A stretch of DNA of 64,000 bases from Promethearchaeia archaeon (GTDB lineage Archaea; Asgardarchaeota; Lokiarchaeia; Sigyniarchaeales; SOKP01). Of this stretch, positions 3,102 to 31,204 are shown one piece after another. The DNA lies in the NCBI GenBank assembly GCA_029856045.1, contig JAHQWG010000033.1, positions 64,001 to 128,000 on the forward strand, read 5' to 3'. Made by a program: the position numbers and the translations under genes. Positions within the stretch are counted from its first letter, which is position 1; every line of letters starts with the position of its first letter. The notes beneath the pieces are model-generated. The model saw nothing but the letters and a program-made list of their open reading frames with translations, made no database searches and had not been told where the DNA came from.

Positions 3102-3130
3102 AAAGAAAAGGAATAGAAATATAAATCTCA

Positions 3131-5209
3131 TTATATAATATATTTTTTTCCATATTCTGGAATTACAATTTTTATATCATTTAGTTTCAATGATAAAAAT
3201 AAATTAGGATATTGTGTGTGAATTGGAAAAACAACTTTTGGTTTAATTTGATTAATAATATATTCTAGATCTTTTATTCTTGCATGTCCGGAGCAATGTA
3301 CTTGATAAAAGTTCCTCTCTTCGATTTTAAACAATTTCAACCAACTCATTAGTTTTTCATGTTCTAATTCCATTTCCGGTTCAAAAGGTTCCGATTTTGA
3401 ATGAATGAAAACACTTCCTGGAACGGGACGTAAATCTATCAAACTAAAAAGCGACCAGAAAGGTAAATAAATTACATATAATCCTTGATTGTTTGCGATA
3501 TCGTCGATAGTAATTGGCTTAACTTGATTATTTATTTCAAAATCTTGTTTTGTTTCCTCTTCAAACATATTCTTACTTGCAGGAGAATATGTATAATCTT
3601 CTTTCTCATATAGTCCCCAACCTTTCCTTGAGAGGTAAGGAACTAAATCCATATCTAAAGGTGGAATATTCGAATAATCTCCCTTTATATTATATTTCTT
3701 ATCTTTTAGAGCGTAATTTAATCTTTCAATTAATTTATAAGTATTTGGCATAATTGCTAATTTTCTTCCATTATTTTTAGCTGCTTTAAAAAATGAATTA
3801 ATTCGACTTAAATCTCTCAAGGAACAAGCAAACATAACTAAACCATTTGTTTCTTCAATTATTTTTGTAATTTTCTCTTCTAATATATCCTCACTTTCAA
3901 CCTCTCCCATCTCTCTTGAGCCACTAATATTAGTTCCTTCACATATTAGAACATCTGGCTCGAATTTTCTTCCAATCTCTATAAAATTTAATGTTTTTTG
4001 TTTTAAATTCGATGGGCCATGCATTCTAATATCTCCTGTATATATTATACGTTTATTATTTTCAATATCTTCAATTAAATATGCTCCAGCTCCAGAGGTT
4101 GAATGATCTACTTCATGGAATTTTATTTTAAATGCCCCATTAACTTTTTTTTCACCTAAAAAATAATCCAAAGTTAATTCTTCATTTGAATTTAAAGTAA
4201 TAAAGCTCCTCTCTTTCATTTTAATATCTCTTTTATATCCTCTCCTAAGCTTAGTAAAATCTGCTCTATATGGAACCAAAATAAAATTCTCCATATATTG
4301 AGTAATACCAGAAAAAGTATCACTTTGAATAAATTCAAAATGATCGAGAAATTCCTTAGAGATTTTACTACTAACATTAATCACTCGGGGATCTATAATC
4401 TTTATATCCGAAACATGATCAGAGTGAGAGTGAGTTATTAACACATGACTAATTTGAGATTCACCTATTGGGTTATAACCAAATCTTTTATTCCAAATTT
4501 CATAATTACGTTGATATTTTTGTTTAGAATCATATTTTTTTTTAGTTACTTCACCTGTAATATTGAAAATATACCATTTTTCATTAAAAAAACTACAATC
4601 TATTTTAGCTAATTTATCTCCAAATGCTTTAATAATTGTATTCAATGACTCCTTAACTTCCTCTGCACCATCAAGTCCCGCTTTCGATATAAGAGTAAAT
4701 AAATTGTCTTCATCAATTTTAAAAAATGTAATAAATTTATCTAAATGTTTTTCTGTTAGATTTATTATTTCTCGTATCCCTCCATACTCAATACTGAATG
4801 TTATGCTAATGTTATAGCCAAATTGTGGATTTCCATAATATTTTGTTTCAAGAATATCAATATTTTTGCAAGGGATATGTATGTTTAGAAATTTGTTATC
4901 ATCTGATTCAATTATTCCTAATTCTCTTACTTTTGTAGCAATACCTACTTTTTGTTTTAAAAAATATAAATCCTCTCTATAAAGACCATGAAATGGCGTA
5001 CCGGGTTTAGGTTCCGGGATAAACCCTAAAGTTATATAATCCTCAATAATATTGAATTTTCGAGGATTTAAAAAAGTGTCAAGATATTGATTACTAAAAT
5101 CTTTTCCAAAATCAAGTAGAATAGACTTTTTATTTTTATTTTCAGGAGAAACAAGAATTTTATTGCCACCGATTTTTCCAACTCCACCCCAAAATGAAAT
5201 TGTTGTCAT
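3131..5209 (-). CDS. MBL-fold beta-CASP nuclease (archaeal RNase J-like) with a large N-terminal insertion
   Basis: GGVGKIGGN, LLDFG, THSHSDH, VDHS, YTGDIR, ICEGT, HCSGH and PIHT motifs. Confidence 0.88.
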   Translation of the reverse strand: MTTISFWGGVGKIGGNKILVSPENKNKKSILLDFGKDFSNQYLDTFLNPRKFNIIEDYITLGFIPEPKPGTPFHGLYREDLYFLKQKVGIATKVRELGIIESDDNKFLNIHIPCKNIDILETKYYGNPQFGYNISITFSIEYGGIREIINLTEKHLDKFITFFKIDEDNLFTLISKAGLDGAEEVKESLNTIIKAFGDKLAKIDCSFFNEKWYIFNITGEVTKKKYDSKQKYQRNYEIWNKRFGYNPIGESQISHVLITHSHSDHVSDIKIIDPRVINVSSKISKEFLDHFEFIQSDTFSGITQYMENFILVPYRADFTKLRRGYKRDIKMKERSFITLNSNEELTLDYFLGEKKVNGAFKIKFHEVDHSTSGAGAYLIEDIENNKRIIYTGDIRMHGPSNLKQKTLNFIEIGRKFEPDVLICEGTNISGSREMGEVESEDILEEKITKIIEETNGLVMFACSLRDLSRINSFFKAAKNNGRKLAIMPNTYKLIERLNYALKDKKYNIKGDYSNIPPLDMDLVPYLSRKGWGLYEKEDYTYSPASKNMFEEETKQDFEINNQVKPITIDDIANNQGLYVIYLPFWSLFSLIDLRPVPGSVFIHSKSEPFEPEMELEHEKLMSWLKLFKIEERNFYQVHCSGHARIKDLEYIINQIKPKVVFPIHTQYPNLFLSLKLNDIKIVIPEYGKKYII

Positions 5210-24322: not shown

Positions 24323-26485
24323 ATGAGTGATACAGAATTTAAAAAAAATTTATTAATTGTAATTGATATAACCGAAAAAGAAAATACTATTCTCAACGAT
24401 TTAGGAAATATTAAAGAAATAAGTGGAAACGGAAAATTAATTATAAAAAATCCGTCTGATAAAAGTCGATTGTGGAACATTACATGTGATCTAAAAGAAA
24501 CGGTAAAAACTTCATTTTCTGCACGTGAAATAAAAATAGATACTCTAGACCCGTTAAAGGATTTTTCTTCCAATTATACAATTTCTAACATAAAAGAACC
24601 TCTTTTAACAGTTACTGAAAAATTCGATACTTTATCAGATTTTTCAGATCGAGAAAATAACACGTTTTTATTTGCTCAAGATACTAAATGTCAGTTAAAA
24701 CTCCATTTAACAAATCAAATAAGTGGAGATATTATCAATATTAAACTTATTAAAGAGATTCCTCCTATACTTAAAGATATTGAGCTCGTTCCACCTAATA
24801 ATGGAACAGCTTCAATGAAAGAAGAAGAAGGTTCGAATAAAATATTTTGGGAATTAAACTCTTTAGGTGTTGGTCAATCGGCTGAATTAGTAGTAAATTG
24901 TATTGGATTAGCAAATTCCGTAGAAATGCAACCACTTGGAGAAATAAGTGCTACATATCTAGTAAACAATAGAATATTAACAATGATTGATCCAGATATA
25001 GTTGCAATAACAGATTCGATGAGTGGAGTAACAAGGGATGAAGGTAGCAAACCAGGGGTATGGGATTGTAATGTTGAATTCATTAATGAATCTGAATTTC
25101 AAGTAAAGTTAAATGATGTAAGAGTAGAACATAATATTATTACTGGGAAAGAAATTGTAGTATCCCAAGCACCCGGAAAGATTTTAAACAGAGACCAAGC
25201 ATGGGATTATGATTTCATTGTTGAATCTAAAGAAGTCCCTCAATTAGAACCAACTTTCGAATTCACTACTTTATTTACAGTGATAAAACGAGTTGAGGGA
25301 ACTATATATAAAGAACCATTATATTATCCCGTACTTCGGGCAGAAGTTTCAAAAGATATTAAACCAAATGAGGTAGGAGCTTATGCAAATACTGATATGG
25401 AAATCTTTAACACTATTTTTAATAAAGGATCAGCTCCAATCGATAAATTACTGATTACAGATGAAATAAACGAAGATTTTGAACCTCCAGACCTGAATAA
25501 AATTAAACTCTTTGCAAAAACTGGTGGGGAATTAAAAGGAATTTTCGGTAATGAATATGTTAAGGTATTTCAAATTACCCCGGATAATAAGGACTTGACA
25601 AAATCTCATAGAATAGAAATTGAACTATTTAATATGGCAAATGACTTATCATCAGATAGTACTTTAGAAATTTCTTATCCAATAATTGCTCGAAATCCAA
25701 AACCTGATAAATCGTATCAAATTCCAATTACTGTTCAGTTAAATACGAAAATTGAAGGAAAACCCTATATTATTGGCCCAAGTGAAACACCGGAAATAAG
25801 AATTAAATATATTGCTAGAAAATTTAAGACTCTTAAAAGTATTAAGCCAGGTAGTGCAGCGGGGGAGTTTATTGTAAGTATTCGACTCCAAAATCAAGGA
25901 AATGTTGAATTAGAAAATATTCTATTTAAGGATAAAATTCCAGTCAATTTTGAATTGATAAGCTTTTCTCCAATGGAATTGAAATATGAGTTAAATAAGA
26001 TTGAAAATGAATCTGAATTAGTTGTAAGAATTATAGAGTTAAAAGCTGATACTGTATTGAAGATCGAATATCAATGTTCTGGTATTGGTGAATACCCACG
26101 ACATGAACCAGTAGTTATTGTTGAAGGAAGGAAAGACGTCATTTCTCAGCCTGAAGAAAATGTAGAACCAACTGTAAGTAGAACACCCGAATCATCAATA
26201 AGTTCCTTTGCAGAAAACATATCATTCTCAATTAAATCACAAATTATTGATGAGATTATTAATCTTGAGAAAAAAATTACCCCTGGATTAAAATCAGTGG
26301 ATGTTGCCAATATGATTGAATATATGAGAGATCTTATTGCTAACATTGCGAGAGTTGGTCCCTTTATTCATGAAATTGGACAAATTGCAAAAGAGTTTAA
26401 AGATCTAGGAGAAAAAACCGTTGTTGGTGAATCTCACGATAAAATTACCAAAAAAATCAAAGAATGGAAAGCTAAATTTTCATAA
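24323..26485 (+). CDS. Multi-domain protein: adaptin mu-homology-like domain, Ig-like repeats and Vps28-CTD-like helical bundle
   Basis: FKKNLLIVIDITEKENTILNDLGNIKEISGNG and EIPP..GTASMKEEEGSNKIFWELNSLGVG resemble AP mu / delta-COP MHD strands; repeated xxNxGxxxxxxxxxxDxIP Ig-like motifs; helical C-terminus. The CDS is certain, the domain calls are by eye. Confidence 0.6.
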   Translation: MSDTEFKKNLLIVIDITEKENTILNDLGNIKEISGNGKLIIKNPSDKSRLWNITCDLKETVKTSFSAREIKIDTLDPLKDFSSNYTISNIKEPLLTVTEKFDTLSDFSDRENNTFLFAQDTKCQLKLHLTNQISGDIINIKLIKEIPPILKDIELVPPNNGTASMKEEEGSNKIFWELNSLGVGQSAELVVNCIGLANSVEMQPLGEISATYLVNNRILTMIDPDIVAITDSMSGVTRDEGSKPGVWDCNVEFINESEFQVKLNDVRVEHNIITGKEIVVSQAPGKILNRDQAWDYDFIVESKEVPQLEPTFEFTTLFTVIKRVEGTIYKEPLYYPVLRAEVSKDIKPNEVGAYANTDMEIFNTIFNKGSAPIDKLLITDEINEDFEPPDLNKIKLFAKTGGELKGIFGNEYVKVFQITPDNKDLTKSHRIEIELFNMANDLSSDSTLEISYPIIARNPKPDKSYQIPITVQLNTKIEGKPYIIGPSETPEIRIKYIARKFKTLKSIKPGSAAGEFIVSIRLQNQGNVELENILFKDKIPVNFELISFSPMELKYELNKIENESELVVRIIELKADTVLKIEYQCSGIGEYPRHEPVVIVEGRKDVISQPEENVEPTVSRTPESSISSFAENISFSIKSQIIDEIINLEKKITPGLKSVDVANMIEYMRDLIANIARVGPFIHEIGQIAKEFKDLGEKTVVGESHDKITKKIKEWKAKFS

Positions 26486-26560
26486 AAATCTAATTTTTAT
26501 ATATATCTTTTTTTATTATTAATTGAAATGAAGTTATAGAAAGCACAGATTTATTGCTTT

Positions 26561-27694
26561 TTACTCATCATCTGCTTTTGGAATTTTGGGAAGTATCCTT
26601 CCAGAAACTTTAATTGTTTTAGGTTTAGTTTGATTATCTTTAGTTGTTCCTAAAGTGTCTTTCTTTGCACTCGATGTCTTAGATATGACCTTTTTAGCTG
26701 TTTTTTTTGTAGGTGTTTTTTTACTTATCGTTTTAGTGGATATTTTTTTAGCTGGCGTTCTAGAGGTTGTTTTTTTTACCGGAGTTCTAGTTGATGTTTT
26801 ATTATTTCTTATTGGAGTCTTTTTATCTAATGTTAATACTTCAATCCCTTTTATTATAGCACGTTCCTCATCAATATAAACCTTTATCTTATTATTTTCT
26901 AGGTCAATTATTCCACTAGGAAATTTTTTAATTCTTTCCCATTCTATATCCTCAACTTCCTCTCCAAGAACAGTAGTTATCTTAGAGACCGCTCCATATA
27001 AATAGTTCCCCATTATGATATTTTGCCGTTTATATCCAGCTGGAATTTCATTTTTTAAAATTTCATTCAAAATTCTTTTAACTTGATCTTGAGAAAAAGA
27101 TGATTTTTTAGTAGTGTATCCAGGACTTATACTTGATGGAGTTATTGGAATAGGTTTAGAAGTTACTTTTTCATTTACTTGAGGTTTAAAAACAGGAGAT
27201 ACTAGAGTAGATTCCATAGCATTCCCATTAAAACTACCTAAAGCTGGGGAATAATAATCTGTACTTTCTACTTTCTTCGAAACCGGATCTGCATCCAGAA
27301 TTATCCCTTGAATCTTACCATCTCTTTCTATATTTCTAATATATCTCATATCTGGTAATCTTTCAGTTACTTCCATCGATTCTAGACCAAACACATTCAA
27401 AAATTCGACCAATTCATCGCCTTGATCGATTGATTTTATTATACATCGATGAAATCCTGCTGATTTTATTAATTCATTTTGCAGTTCTTGGGCAACTCGT
27501 GAAGATATGAATCTCTTCCGAACTGGAGACTTAGAACCTTTCCAAATAAAAATTCTCCTTAGATCTTCCCTAACTATCACAAATACCTGATTAGGATCTA
27601 AAATTGATCCTAATTCTTCAGAAGATATATTCAGTTCATTTCTATTTCCATCATCTAATAATTCAAAAGCCATAAATTCCTTGTATTCAGTCAT
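26561..27694 (-). CDS. Gelsolin-domain protein with Lys/Thr-rich tail
   Basis: LDPNQVFVIVREDLRRIFIWKGSKSPVRKRF..IDQGDELVEFLNVF matches the gelsolin core (LDxxxVFIL..IFxWxG..QGxExxxF). Confidence 0.8.
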   Translation of the reverse strand: MTEYKEFMAFELLDDGNRNELNISSEELGSILDPNQVFVIVREDLRRIFIWKGSKSPVRKRFISSRVAQELQNELIKSAGFHRCIIKSIDQGDELVEFLNVFGLESMEVTERLPDMRYIRNIERDGKIQGIILDADPVSKKVESTDYYSPALGSFNGNAMESTLVSPVFKPQVNEKVTSKPIPITPSSISPGYTTKKSSFSQDQVKRILNEILKNEIPAGYKRQNIIMGNYLYGAVSKITTVLGEEVEDIEWERIKKFPSGIIDLENNKIKVYIDEERAIIKGIEVLTLDKKTPIRNNKTSTRTPVKKTTSRTPAKKISTKTISKKTPTKKTAKKVISKTSSAKKDTLGTTKDNQTKPKTIKVSGRILPKIPKADDE

Positions 27695-28043
27695 TATTCT
27701 TCTTTATACTTGTCTCAAATTAAAAGCAATTTTCTCTATAACCTTTAGATAAAAGCTCTCTTATTTGAATATTTTTATTTTTAATTTTGTCTAAATCTAC
27801 AAAAACTAATATATTCATATAATATCTATATATATTTTTATCCATCTTCATGTTTTAGATTAATACTATAGGATAATTATGATCTAATCGAAAATAATTC
27901 TATAACGACCATTAAACTCTCGTCTAGCAACCAAATTATCTTAATTTAATCAAAAATATTAATACAAATTTAACAATAATTATATAAATCTTTATTCTCA
28001 TATTGTTATTAAATTAAATTAATCAATTTCATTATTAAAAGGT

Positions 28044-28736
28044 TTGAATAAAATGGGAGTAAATTTTTGCCCAAGTTGTGGTGATCCTTTACAACCTGGT
28101 CAGAAGTTCTGTGAAAAATGCGGTGCTAAAATTGATGACTCTGCACCAGTACCTTCTCAAACTAAAAGTGCTACCAGCCCCGTTCGAAGTGGTGGAATCT
28201 TTGATATTAACAGAAACTACTATGTCTTGAAAGAGAAATACTGGGATTGGGGGTCTGGCGATATTCTTGATGAAAAGGGGCAACCCATCGGGAGAATGCA
28301 TCGAAAAATAATTTCACTTAGAAGGAAAGTTGAGCTTATGGAATTGGATGGTACTATCCAAGCAACAATTCATGCTAAGATTGTTAGTGCAAGAGGATCT
28401 CAAGATTTGAAAGATCCAGAGGGAAATATGATCGCTAGAATCAAAAAATCAATAACTAGTGTTTTTCGCCCTAAATTTTACTTAGAATCTCCTGATGGAG
28501 ATAAATGGTATGAAGCTCAAGGTAAATTCATGGGTTGGTCCTACAAAGTCACAAATTTTAAAACTGGTGAGTTAGTTGCAGAAATCGAGAAAGCTGATCG
28601 GTGGAGGGATGTTTTTTTGGGTGGTATGTTCGATTTTAAGGACACATACGCCTTACGGATTCATGATAATAAAACTGATAGGCGTATTTTAGTGGGGTTT
28701 GTTCTTTCAATTGATAATGTCTTGCATGATAAATAA
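28044..28736 (+). CDS. Zinc-ribbon plus LURP-one-related/scramblase (tubby C-terminal-like) protein
   Basis: FCPSCG..FCEKCG; YVLKEKYWDWGSGDILDEKGQPIG, GELVAEIEK and DTYALRI..LVGFVLSID are LOR-family features. Confidence 0.82.
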   Translation: MNKMGVNFCPSCGDPLQPGQKFCEKCGAKIDDSAPVPSQTKSATSPVRSGGIFDINRNYYVLKEKYWDWGSGDILDEKGQPIGRMHRKIISLRRKVELMELDGTIQATIHAKIVSARGSQDLKDPEGNMIARIKKSITSVFRPKFYLESPDGDKWYEAQGKFMGWSYKVTNFKTGELVAEIEKADRWRDVFLGGMFDFKDTYALRIHDNKTDRRILVGFVLSIDNVLHDK

Positions 28737-28919
28737 TATTTAATTCTTTTTTTTTCTTAACTTCTTTTTTCAAAAATAGTGATAAAAATGATATCATTTT
28801 TAGGAACCCTATTTAACTAGTACAATTTATTCAAACCTAAAGTAATTATTGAAAGATATTTTATTTTAATTAAGAAGATATTTATATAAATAAGTAGAAA
28901 TAATAATAGGTTTTTTACA

Positions 28920-29708
28920 ATGAGTATGATTCGTCTCTTAAAATTAAAGGATTACATCACTCTTTCAGGGACAATTTGTGGGATTTTTGCTTTAATGATT
29001 GGAATTATAATTAAAGATTTAGCTTTGGGATTTTTTTTAATTATGATTTGTCAAGGGACAGATCTGTTAGATGGATATGTAGCAAGAAAATTAAATCAAA
29101 AAAATGAAATTGGAAAAGAAATAGATTCATTAAATGATTTATTTTGTTTTGGAGTTGTTCCTGCAATGTTAATTTTTATTAACTATTGTGATGATTTGCC
29201 CTTTGAATTAATTTTTTACATTCCAGCGATCATTATATTCATTTTGTGTGCTCTACTTAGATTAGCAAGATTTAATATTATGGATGCAAAGGGATATACA
29301 GGGATAGTAACTCCTTTATCCGGTTTAATGGTGACCTTCTTTTATTATATAGATTATTTTAGTATTCAAACTTTTGAAGAAAATAATTTTATTTCAATTT
29401 GGGTTCAATTACTATTTCCATTTTTATTAGGATTTTTGGGTTACTTAAATATTACTACTTTTATTATATATGGTGAAGAGATAAAGAAAAAGTCTGGTAA
29501 CTTAAAATATGTCTTTATTATCGGAGGCATTCTCACAATCGTAATCGGTATAATTGGACTAACTTTTCCAAAACAGTTGGCGGCTCTACCTTTACTTATT
29601 ATATTTATAGGATCTTTTGTATTAGGATGGTTTTATATTTTTATTGGTTTTAAAAATTATTTAAATTCAAGAAAGAATATTAAAAAGGAACTTAATTCAA
29701 CTAACTAA
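28920..29708 (+). CDS. CDP-alcohol phosphatidyltransferase, PssA / archaetidylserine synthase-like
   Basis: DLLDGYVARKLNQKNEIGKEIDSLNDLFCFGVVPA and ALLRLARFN. Confidence 0.88.
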   Translation: MSMIRLLKLKDYITLSGTICGIFALMIGIIIKDLALGFFLIMICQGTDLLDGYVARKLNQKNEIGKEIDSLNDLFCFGVVPAMLIFINYCDDLPFELIFYIPAIIIFILCALLRLARFNIMDAKGYTGIVTPLSGLMVTFFYYIDYFSIQTFEENNFISIWVQLLFPFLLGFLGYLNITTFIIYGEEIKKKSGNLKYVFIIGGILTIVIGIIGLTFPKQLAALPLLIIFIGSFVLGWFYIFIGFKNYLNSRKNIKKELNSTN

Positions 29709-31204
29709 TTTGCCAATCTTTCAATCCAATTTTTAATTCGATTTTTCAGTACTTTTTGTACATCCTCATCAAGCTTTCCTTTATTTTTGACATCTGTTAT
29801 CCAACGGCGTATATCATTTAGTATTACAGAGAAGCCTTTATTTTCAAGAATATAGTCATTTAATTCTTCTAAATGTTTTGCAATTACATTTCCATTTTTA
29901 CTATCTAATTCTTCTGAAATTGCGATAAATCGAGAGCCAATCTCGGTCAATTCTCCCTTTAGAACTCCACTTTTAAGAATTTCATCTTTAATGGATTTCA
30001 ATGGTGCTTTTTCTTTCTTTTCTTCAATGACCTCAATAATTTTTTCCTTTTCTTCAATAAATGTAGAAATTGTATCGATTTCTTTACCAATTGGCTCTTT
30101 CTTCTCAGCAATTTCTCCAGATGGAGGAGGAATTTTTATTTCTTCAGATTTTTTTATGATTTTAATTGGCATTTGTTTTGTTTTTTCAAACAGAAATTGA
30201 AATGCCTGATTATTTTGGTGAATTGGTGAAGACATAAAGTTAAAAACGTTTGCTAATAATTCAAATATTTTTTGGCTAAGAGATTCATCAAAAATGGAGA
30301 ATTTTTCTTCTTCTTTTTCTAAGACCATATTAAAAGTTTTCTCTTGATCACTAATAGTTTGTTCATACTCGTACATTAAATCAAATAAACTCATTCGAAT
30401 CTCATTTTCAATTTTCCCAACTTGAGAAGATATTTCATTAATGTTTTGCTGTAAGATCTCTGAATTTTTTTTAAACACATCAGGTAATTTTTCATTGAAA
30501 CTTTCTTTAATTTCATTAATTTTATTATCAATAATTTTATCTACTAATAATTTTATATCTTTCTGCTTTTTTTTAAGGTTAAATTCTTCGAGATTTTCCA
30601 TAATTTCTTGTTTCGTATTCTCGATTTGTTTTACAAAATTTTGAAAATGTAAATTGAAAACGTTCTCTACCATTTTATAAAATTTACTGGTATTGTTTAA
30701 TAATAGATTTAATTCAGGGATTAATGAAACTCCATCTTCATAATCCGCTTTTATTAAACTTAAATTTGCTACAATTGTGGTTTTTGCTTCTTGAAAATTC
30801 TTAATATAATTTTTTAAATTTAATAAAAATCCAGATTCTTCTTTAATCTCATTAAAAATTTTGGATATTTTATCAGGTAATTCATTGGCCATTTGATTTG
30901 ATTTAACATCAAATTTCTCATAATAATTTAAAAATGCACGATATGGGGGTATAGCGTAATAATAAGGTGTAATTTCCTCGGAAGATTCTGAGTTAGAAAT
31001 ACACAAACCTTTAGTTAAAAGCTCTTCGATTAAACTTTTATTTAATTCTTCATTTGTAGTTTCTGTAATTGATGAGATTTCTTCCATTGTTAAGGGAGGT
31101 CTCCCAATAATTTTTAAATAAAGGTCAAGACTATCATGTGAAAGATCCAATTCATTTAATAATTGAGTTAAAAAATCTTTATCATTATTATTTGCCATAA
31201 TCAA
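29705..31204 (-). CDS. TrmB-like winged-HTH, long coiled-coil and Vps28-CTD-like helical bundle protein
   Basis: LDLSHDSLDLYLKII..LTMEEIS..LIEELLTKGL..YYAIPP wHTH; about 250 aa of heptad-rich helix; C-terminal four-helix domain. Confidence 0.6.
   Translation of the reverse strand: MIMANNNDKDFLTQLLNELDLSHDSLDLYLKIIGRPPLTMEEISSITETTNEELNKSLIEELLTKGLCISNSESSEEITPYYYAIPPYRAFLNYYEKFDVKSNQMANELPDKISKIFNEIKEESGFLLNLKNYIKNFQEAKTTIVANLSLIKADYEDGVSLIPELNLLLNNTSKFYKMVENVFNLHFQNFVKQIENTKQEIMENLEEFNLKKKQKDIKLLVDKIIDNKINEIKESFNEKLPDVFKKNSEILQQNINEISSQVGKIENEIRMSLFDLMYEYEQTISDQEKTFNMVLEKEEEKFSIFDESLSQKIFELLANVFNFMSSPIHQNNQAFQFLFEKTKQMPIKIIKKSEEIKIPPPSGEIAEKKEPIGKEIDTISTFIEEKEKIIEVIEEKKEKAPLKSIKDEILKSGVLKGELTEIGSRFIAISEELDSKNGNVIAKHLEELNDYILENKGFSVILNDIRRWITDVKNKGKLDEDVQKVLKNRIKNWIERLAN

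Follow-up and report, generated by a model that had tools for sequence, protein, structure and literature searches.

A C-terminal four-helix domain resembling that of Vps28 in two neighbouring multidomain proteins of a Promethearchaeia archaeon

[quoted passage not shown] In the structures from Xenopus (2j9w) and yeast (2g3k), which correspond to the C-terminal half of Pfam PF03997, four helices form an up-down bundle of approximately 85-95 residues that sits on a flexible C-terminal linker and carries a conserved aromatic residue, a tryptophan, in helix 4. Asgard archaea encode many multidomain proteins with a Vps28-C domain or a steadiness box. Adaptin appendage and longin domains are frequent companions, and TPR, IG-like and HTH/PCI domains are found with them too (Makarova et al., mBio 2024, PMC10936438, Fig. 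6B). Such proteins were proposed to bind ESCRT-II without core ESCRT-I and to be functional ESCRT-0 analogues (PMC10936438), and the concept of Vps28-C fused to adaptor or HTH bodies is therefore already published. Here, we analysed a stretch of 64,000 nucleotides (hereafter the window; G+C ~28%) from a Promethearchaeia archaeon with a genome of 3.34 Mb (assembly GCA_029856045.1, contig JAHQWG010000033.1, C32 in our numbering). It encodes two neighbouring proteins of 720 and 499 residues, P0001 and P0002, whose C-termini are referred to as tail 1 and tail 2.

Sequence profiles and structural models show both tails to be copies of one domain of ~85 residues, an up-down four-helix bundle on a flexible C-terminal linker. 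It is probably a subfamily sister to Vps28-C that has diverged from it. As the best explanation of the whole we lean, with some reserve, towards one portable domain, sister to Vps28-C, that acts as a docking head onto ESCRT-II/III. P0001 and P0002 come from the same phylum as the published multidomain proteins and follow the same logic, with a Vps28-C-like module on an adaptor-like beta-sandwich or on an HTH body. Unlike the published set, however, the subfamily described here escapes the Pfam VPS28 model. The P0001 and P0002 families, the body resembling a mu homology domain (MHD), the ~200-residue hub proteins and the tandem arrays described below are not listed in the text supplements of PMC10936438 but may be among the architectures of its Fig. 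6B.

A common domain at the two C-termini

AlphaFold2 predicted four helices in each tail. The model of tail 1 (P0001 residues 628-720; mean predicted local distance difference test score, pLDDT, 96.1) has helices at model positions 8-24, 31-48, 52-68 and 75-92, corresponding to residues ~635-651, 658-675, 679-695 and 702-719 of the protein. For tail 2 (P0002 residues 405-499; pLDDT 88.2) these are positions 17-28, 34-52, 56-69 and 76-94, or residues ~421-432, 438-456, 460-473 and 480-498. The helix spacing is near-identical, and both models contain a one-residue beta-bridge in the loops preceding helix 2 and helix 4. The initial annotation of the window had read the same helix spacing and a terminal I-K-x-W from the letters alone and had placed both tails correctly to within a few bases. 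Its reading of the terminal motif was borne out by an alignment of 146 domain copies, in all of which the tryptophan is invariant (W715 in tail 1; W493 in tail 2, where the conserved motif is ILENKGFS...IRRWI).

A direct comparison of the two tails by BLASTP returned nothing (E 0.14 over 28 residues). For profile comparisons, A4 was built from 30 P0001 orthologues, A3 from six P0002 homologues and A5 from 79 copies of the enlarged tail-2 domain. Searched over the organism's own genome as hidden Markov models (HMMs), A3 and A4 recovered neither the other tail nor Vps28 above noise. When A4 and A3 were still small, their comparison in hhalign was collinear over the whole length and gave 31.8% (E 4.9e-4), which is suggestive only. 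It became decisive only once the families were enlarged: A4 against A5 gave 94.7% (E 6.3e-8) over 81 collinear columns, the whole tail, while reversed profiles did not exceed 2.9% and none of 20 column shuffles went beyond 1.4%. Furthermore, the HMMs of A4 and A5 match identical short proteins in other Asgard families (G035:C100, G013:C3 and G053:C62). They belong to a family of ~180-290-residue Asgard proteins made up of a coiled coil, a P/A-rich linker and the bundle, which we call hub proteins. In hhalign the hub profile scored 98.2% against A4 (E 3.5e-14), 98.4% against A5 and 98.2% against A3, and a second profile comparison gave 98.3% for hub against A4. Among the best 150 representatives, A4 and A5 matched the same region in 95 at E <= 1e-3 and in 40 at E <= 1e-5, and a superfamily profile of these 150 domains reached 99.2% against A4 and 98.9% against A3. 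A shape search of the ESM Atlas with the tail-1 model likewise returned Asgard hypothetical proteins of 163-203 residues, with template modelling (TM) scores of 0.71-0.75 and root mean square deviations (rmsd) of 1.8-2.6.

Searched exhaustively as an HMM, the hub profile collected 241 representatives (clusters at 50% identity) at E <= 1e-3, in which the domain is nearly always C-terminal. In the family searches made here it was found in Asgard archaea only, most commonly in proteins of ~160-400 residues that run from coiled coil through linker to bundle. A variable linker precedes the bundle in every architecture, as in Vps28. Across the window's own taxonomic family (f1), an HMM of tail 2 was positive in 40 of 41 genomes, each of them having 1-10 matches, at the C-termini of reading frames of ~190, 310-350, 490-500 and 580-760 residues. 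In the same family, frames of 618-1021 residues carry tandem arrays of 2-5 domain copies. Given the many frame types and the tandem arrays, the tail is therefore best described as an independently folding, mobile domain, and the portability claimed by the initial annotation stands. Within f1 it has spread to an MHD-like/Ig-like body, to winged helix-turn-helix (wHTH)/coiled-coil bodies (P0002 and a paralogue) and to tandem arrays. The arrays at L067-L076 and L086 (among them L067:261-3308, plus strand, 1016 residues) come from several f1 genera, and a Pfam scan of one of them was empty. The family comprises at least 241 clusters and is missed by current Pfam annotation.

Relation to the C-terminal domain of Vps28

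The initial annotation had likened both tails to the Vps28 CTD. As a reference we used 29 non-redundant Asgard Vps28 C-domains, all of whose source proteins have a full-length match to Pfam VPS28. Against this set, hhalign gave 92.5% for A3 (E 4.9e-7, 82 columns), 94.8% for the hub family (E 5.2e-8), 95.0% for the 150-domain superfamily profile (E 4e-8) and 81.4% for the 79-copy A5. A Pfam-positive tail of the type encoded on contig C36, used as a positive control, reached 88.1%, and the Vps28 N-domain stayed at or below 2.5% against all tail families. In a Foldseek search of 350,542 PDB chains, the top match of the tail-2 model was the Vps28 CTD 2j9w (TM 0.66, rmsd 2.5, E 0.3); the next-ranked chain had a TM score of 0.41, and a lower-ranked designed bundle one of 0.61. 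Vps28 CTDs (2j9w and 2g3k) came out on top for tail 2 with two programs, a Vps28 CTD was also the top VIA-align match of tail 1, and the models of tails 1 and 2 have collinear alignments to 2j9w_B, of 89 and 83 residues.

Four-helix up-down bundles are common, and the tails might be homologous to each other while resembling Vps28-C by convergence. The Foldseek E-values of the tails are indeed poor (0.3-3), designed bundles score near Vps28 in the structural searches, and matches to Pfam VPS28 and HMM matches to Vps28 chains in the PDB are lacking. We nevertheless consider convergence improbable: three independent profiles reach 92-95% with E-values from 4e-8 to 5e-7 over 66-83 collinear columns, while the reversed, shuffled and Vps28-N controls do not exceed 3%. 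The top rank of Vps28 CTDs among all PDB chains, for tail 2 with both programs and for tail 1 in VIA-align, and the linker-tethered C-terminal placement, which is that of Vps28, also argue against it.

Several results weigh against a sister domain of Vps28-C that docks onto ESCRT-II/III. Compared directly with Vps28-C, tail 1 (A4) scored 1.2% in hhalign, and taken together with its comparison to the Pfam-positive tail of the ~790-residue proteins the values were 1.2-1.3%. Neither protein and neither tail matched Pfam VPS28 (PF03997, positions ~87-188) at E <= 1, and over the whole genome this model detected only the canonical 212-residue Vps28 on contig C37 and the tail of a 789-residue protein on C36. 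Searched against the PDB, an HMM of the 146 copies matched none of the Vps28 chains at E <= 10. The genes of the domain lie near neither Vps28 nor Vps25 in any of the 12 genomes with comparable positions, and P0001 and P0002 are adjacent in one genus only. PDB sequence and profile searches with each tail, A3 and A4 also returned no Vps28 chain, their top matches being designed repeats and bundles; one of these, a designed 'CAP repeat', was dismissed as the sum of five weak repeats.

The likeness noted initially finds support for tail 2 by profile and by structure, whereas the link of tail 1 to Vps28-C is, in profile comparisons, transitive only and runs via the hub family; the Pfam model is reached by neither. 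The tail-bearing proteins themselves are not Vps28 orthologues: the Vps28 N-domain is absent from the family (its profile matched 0 of 150 representatives) and canonical Vps28 coexists in the same genomes. Unlike Vps28 they have no N-terminal core with its steadiness-box hairpin, and they include tandem arrays.

The 789-residue protein of this genome is a textbook case of the class described by Makarova et al. It is encoded on the minus strand (G000:C36:77904-80270, L120) and combines a Cys-rich, Zn-ribbon-like N-terminus with winged-helix regions matching DDRGK (3e-9), E3_UFM1_ligase (4e-13) and PCI (3e-16) and with a Vps28-C tail that Pfam recognises (residues 690-779). At least ten f1 genomes encode proteins of ~786-807 residues that end in the same tail. 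In another taxonomic family, f7, a Pfam-detectable Vps28 was found in 0 of 17 genomes and Vps25 in 16. Fourteen of the 17 encode a protein of 300-400 residues that matches the P0001-tail HMM, often over no more than helices 1 and 2 and half of helix 3 (for example G055:C21:330485-330664 and G005:C56:20703-20951), and which may be the divergent Vps28-C carrier of that lineage.

N-terminal bodies and putative docking partners

The family of P0001 is well conserved, numbers over 235 clusters at 90% identity and consists of ~700-residue proteins with Asgard (Promethearchaeota) names; the names on homologues in general are Asgard too, mostly Promethearchaeota/Lokiarchaeota and Helarchaeota. Full-length relatives were found solely in f1, in 37 of its 40 other genomes. 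The initial annotation had proposed an adaptor-like MHD on this protein. Pfam PF00928, the mu homology domain of the medium subunit of adaptor protein (AP) complexes, matched 6 of 30 orthologues, one of them over the cut-off (36.7 versus 31.6 bits), and an Atlas model of residues 1-330 superposed on eukaryotic Adap_comp_sub/AP-mu structures with TM scores of 0.61/0.54 over 232 residues. P0001 itself had no significant PF00928 match in the Pfam scan, and its N-terminal profile matched nothing among the PDB sequences. P0001 itself stays below the Pfam threshold, and since the PDB profile search came up empty we regard the MHD-like reading as reasonable but unproven. Unlike AP-mu, P0001 has no longin/sigma-like N-domain and is not accompanied by other AP subunits, and its body continues into Ig-like DUF11 domains, present in 30 of 30 orthologues, and into the Vps28-C-like tail. 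The Atlas search with residues 1-330 also reached Thermoplasmatota, where comparable bodies carry DUF11 (TM 0.82) and in some cases AF2028_C, so that the MHD-like/Ig-like body is not restricted to Asgard archaea.

For P0002 proper, a homologue search yielded six clusters only. Its sequence is probably that of a wHTH domain followed by a coiled coil, as the initial annotation had suggested. The N-terminus matches Pfam TrmB (PF01978) with an E-value of 0.0044 and 17.3 bits, below the cut-off of 25.6, and its profile matches an archaeal wHTH regulator of known structure (PDB 2d1h, E 0.0019); residues ~100-345 gave weak Pfam matches of coiled-coil type only. With the P0002-tail HMM we detected two further tails in the same genome, one in a paralogous 746-residue frame with wHTH, coiled coil, an extra domain and tail, and one in a 190-residue frame of coiled coil and tail, a hub paralogue at G000:C25:128280-128849. 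With the DUF11 and MHD-like domains of P0001 and the more weakly evidenced wHTH of P0002, both proteins fit the published class of Asgard Vps28-C multidomain proteins.

The same two wHTH matches could also mark P0002 as a TrmB-type DNA-binding regulator with a dimerising coiled coil, in which the tail would be regulatory or partner-sensing and the whole no trafficking stalk. The longer orthologues and the paralogue (~580-750 residues) would suit such a protein, as they have a domain inserted between coiled coil and tail, just as a C-terminal domain is present in TrmB proteins. However, both matches are below curated thresholds, winged-helix domains also make up ESCRT-II, and proteins combining HTH/PCI with Vps28-C have already been set in an ESCRT context (PMC10936438). 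We consider a TrmB-type regulator unlikely.

If the domain acts like the Vps28 CTD, it would be a tethered protein-docking head through which the ligands of different N-terminal bodies are joined to one shared partner. For P0001 these ligands would be cargo or membrane proteins, and for P0002 some protein or nucleic acid. The most plausible common partner would be the ESCRT-II/III set encoded elsewhere in the genome, which comprises a Vps25-like, two EAP30-like and two Snf7-like proteins besides the canonical Vps28, all on other contigs. ESCRT recruitment by the tails is an inference that we draw because of the homology with the Vps28 CTD and the published model (PMC10936438). The sampled lineages that have the domain also have Vps25, whereas in one lineage, family f17, which is represented by incomplete genomes, the domain, Vps28 and Vps25 are all missing.

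The bundle could share ancestry with Vps28-C and yet have become a general docking or oligomerisation module with non-ESCRT partners, candidates being coiled-coil hub proteins, ubiquitin-system proteins and small GTPases, and the arrays could be multivalent scaffolds. This would agree with the lack of linkage to ESCRT clusters in the 12 genomes, with arrays of 2-5 copies that have no counterpart in Vps28, with the plain coiled-coil nature of most family members and with the coexistence of the subfamily and a distinct canonical Vps28 in the same genomes; moreover, one hub gene adjoins a gene for an E2 (UQ_con) and lies near an Arf/Ras-type GTPase gene. On the other hand, the sole characterised relatives, the Vps28 CTDs, are connectors of ESCRT-I to ESCRT-II/III, and the co-occurrence with Vps25, together with the joint absence in the incomplete genomes of the one lineage f17, points the same way. 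We therefore see a general, non-ESCRT module as possible though rather doubtful, and continue to favour docking onto ESCRT-II/III.

Should the domain indeed dock there, its proteins would be archaeal counterparts of the ESCRT-0/ESCRT-I cargo adaptors, and the AP-mu-like body on one of them would bear on the modular assembly of the eukaryotic sorting machinery. It may be speculated, as a tentative and somewhat doubtful extension, that the bundle serves as the shared plug in an adaptor toolkit expanded in this lineage, several bodies per genome (a cargo binder of AP-mu-like type, proteins of wHTH and coiled coil, PCI/UFL1-like arrays, and tandem arrays that are multivalent) docking through it onto ESCRT-II/III while bypassing ESCRT-I, with the ~200-residue hub proteins as the ancestral free form. 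If so, a direct coupling of ESCRT to the adaptor-type recognition of cargo would already be present in an archaeon. What is added to the published concept is the subfamily invisible to Pfam, the hub form, the tandem arrays and the MHD-like partner body, along with clean construct boundaries for binding and structural work.

The E2 neighbourhood mentioned above (L122:5175-6690, GCA_019057375.1) consists of a 229-residue hub gene divergent from the E2 gene, a double-Zn-ribbon gene after the hub gene and the Arf/Ras-type GTPase gene 3.4 kb off; we treat it as a lead only. At the Vps28 loci of 30 Asgard genomes (L008-L037), a jackhmmer search started from the organism's own Vps28 also recruited an adjacent open reading frame (ORF) at 29 of 30 loci, with frames of ~130-285 residues and E-values of 1e-12 to 1e-19. 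Steadiness-box ESCRT genes such as Vps22-SB have been described as codirected with vps28 (PMC10936438), and the adjoining frame may be such a gene, for example Vps22 fused to a steadiness box.

Locus and neighbouring genes

The positions of the two genes, their domains and the candidate partner genes are given in Table 1. Among the homologues of P0002 the proteins begin two codons later, at the ATG at position 31198, which is therefore probably the true start and would give a protein of 497 residues.

Table 1 Features of P0001 and P0002 in the window and candidate partner genes on other contigs.
Feature	Residues	Position	Strand	Basis
Gene of the 720-residue protein (P0001)		24323..26485	+	ORF
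Mu-homology-domain-like beta region	1-330	24323..25312	+	PF00928 in orthologues; Atlas structure
DUF11/CARDB-type Ig-like beta-sandwich	~513-573	25859..26041	+	Pfam; orthologues
Gapped linker tethering tail 1, variable among orthologues	~600-636	26120..26230	+	Orthologue alignment
Four-helix Vps28-C-like bundle, tail 1	637-720	26231..26482	+	AlphaFold2, profiles, shape search
Gene of the 499-residue protein (P0002)		29705..31204	-	ORF
Probable TrmB/MarR-type winged helix-turn-helix	~16-87	30944..31159	-	Pfam TrmB; PDB profile match
Long helical region of coiled-coil type	~100-345	30170..30907	-	Sequence, alignment
K/E/I-rich linker, variable among homologues	~346-416	29957..30169	-	Alignment
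Four-helix Vps28-C-like bundle, tail 2	417-499	29708..29956	-	Alignment, AlphaFold2, profiles
Candidate partner genes, ESCRT-II/III-like		C36:208-3778 (Snf7-like 208-696, Vps25-like frame 2605-2919, EAP30/Vps22-like 3113-3778); C36:40221-40568 (EAP30/Vps22-like frame); C15:194163-194651 (Snf7-like)		

P0001 and P0002 are neighbours, at equal spacing, only within genus g1 (G126 and G134), while in ~20 other genomes of f1 their orthologues lie on separate contigs. A conserved locus was therefore rejected, and since the adjacency is limited to one genus, we assign the locus no functional weight.

Three genes lie between the two. The first (26561-27694, minus strand) encodes a 377-residue gelsolin-like protein, which matches the gelsolin repeat weakly at residues 32-99 (E 0.015) and has many (S/T)KKT-type repeats in a long basic tail. 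It is followed on the plus strand by a gene for a protein with a Zn-ribbon and a LOR/scramblase fold (28044-28736; LOR 4e-10) and by one for a CDP-alcohol phosphatidyltransferase (28920-29708; 7e-16).

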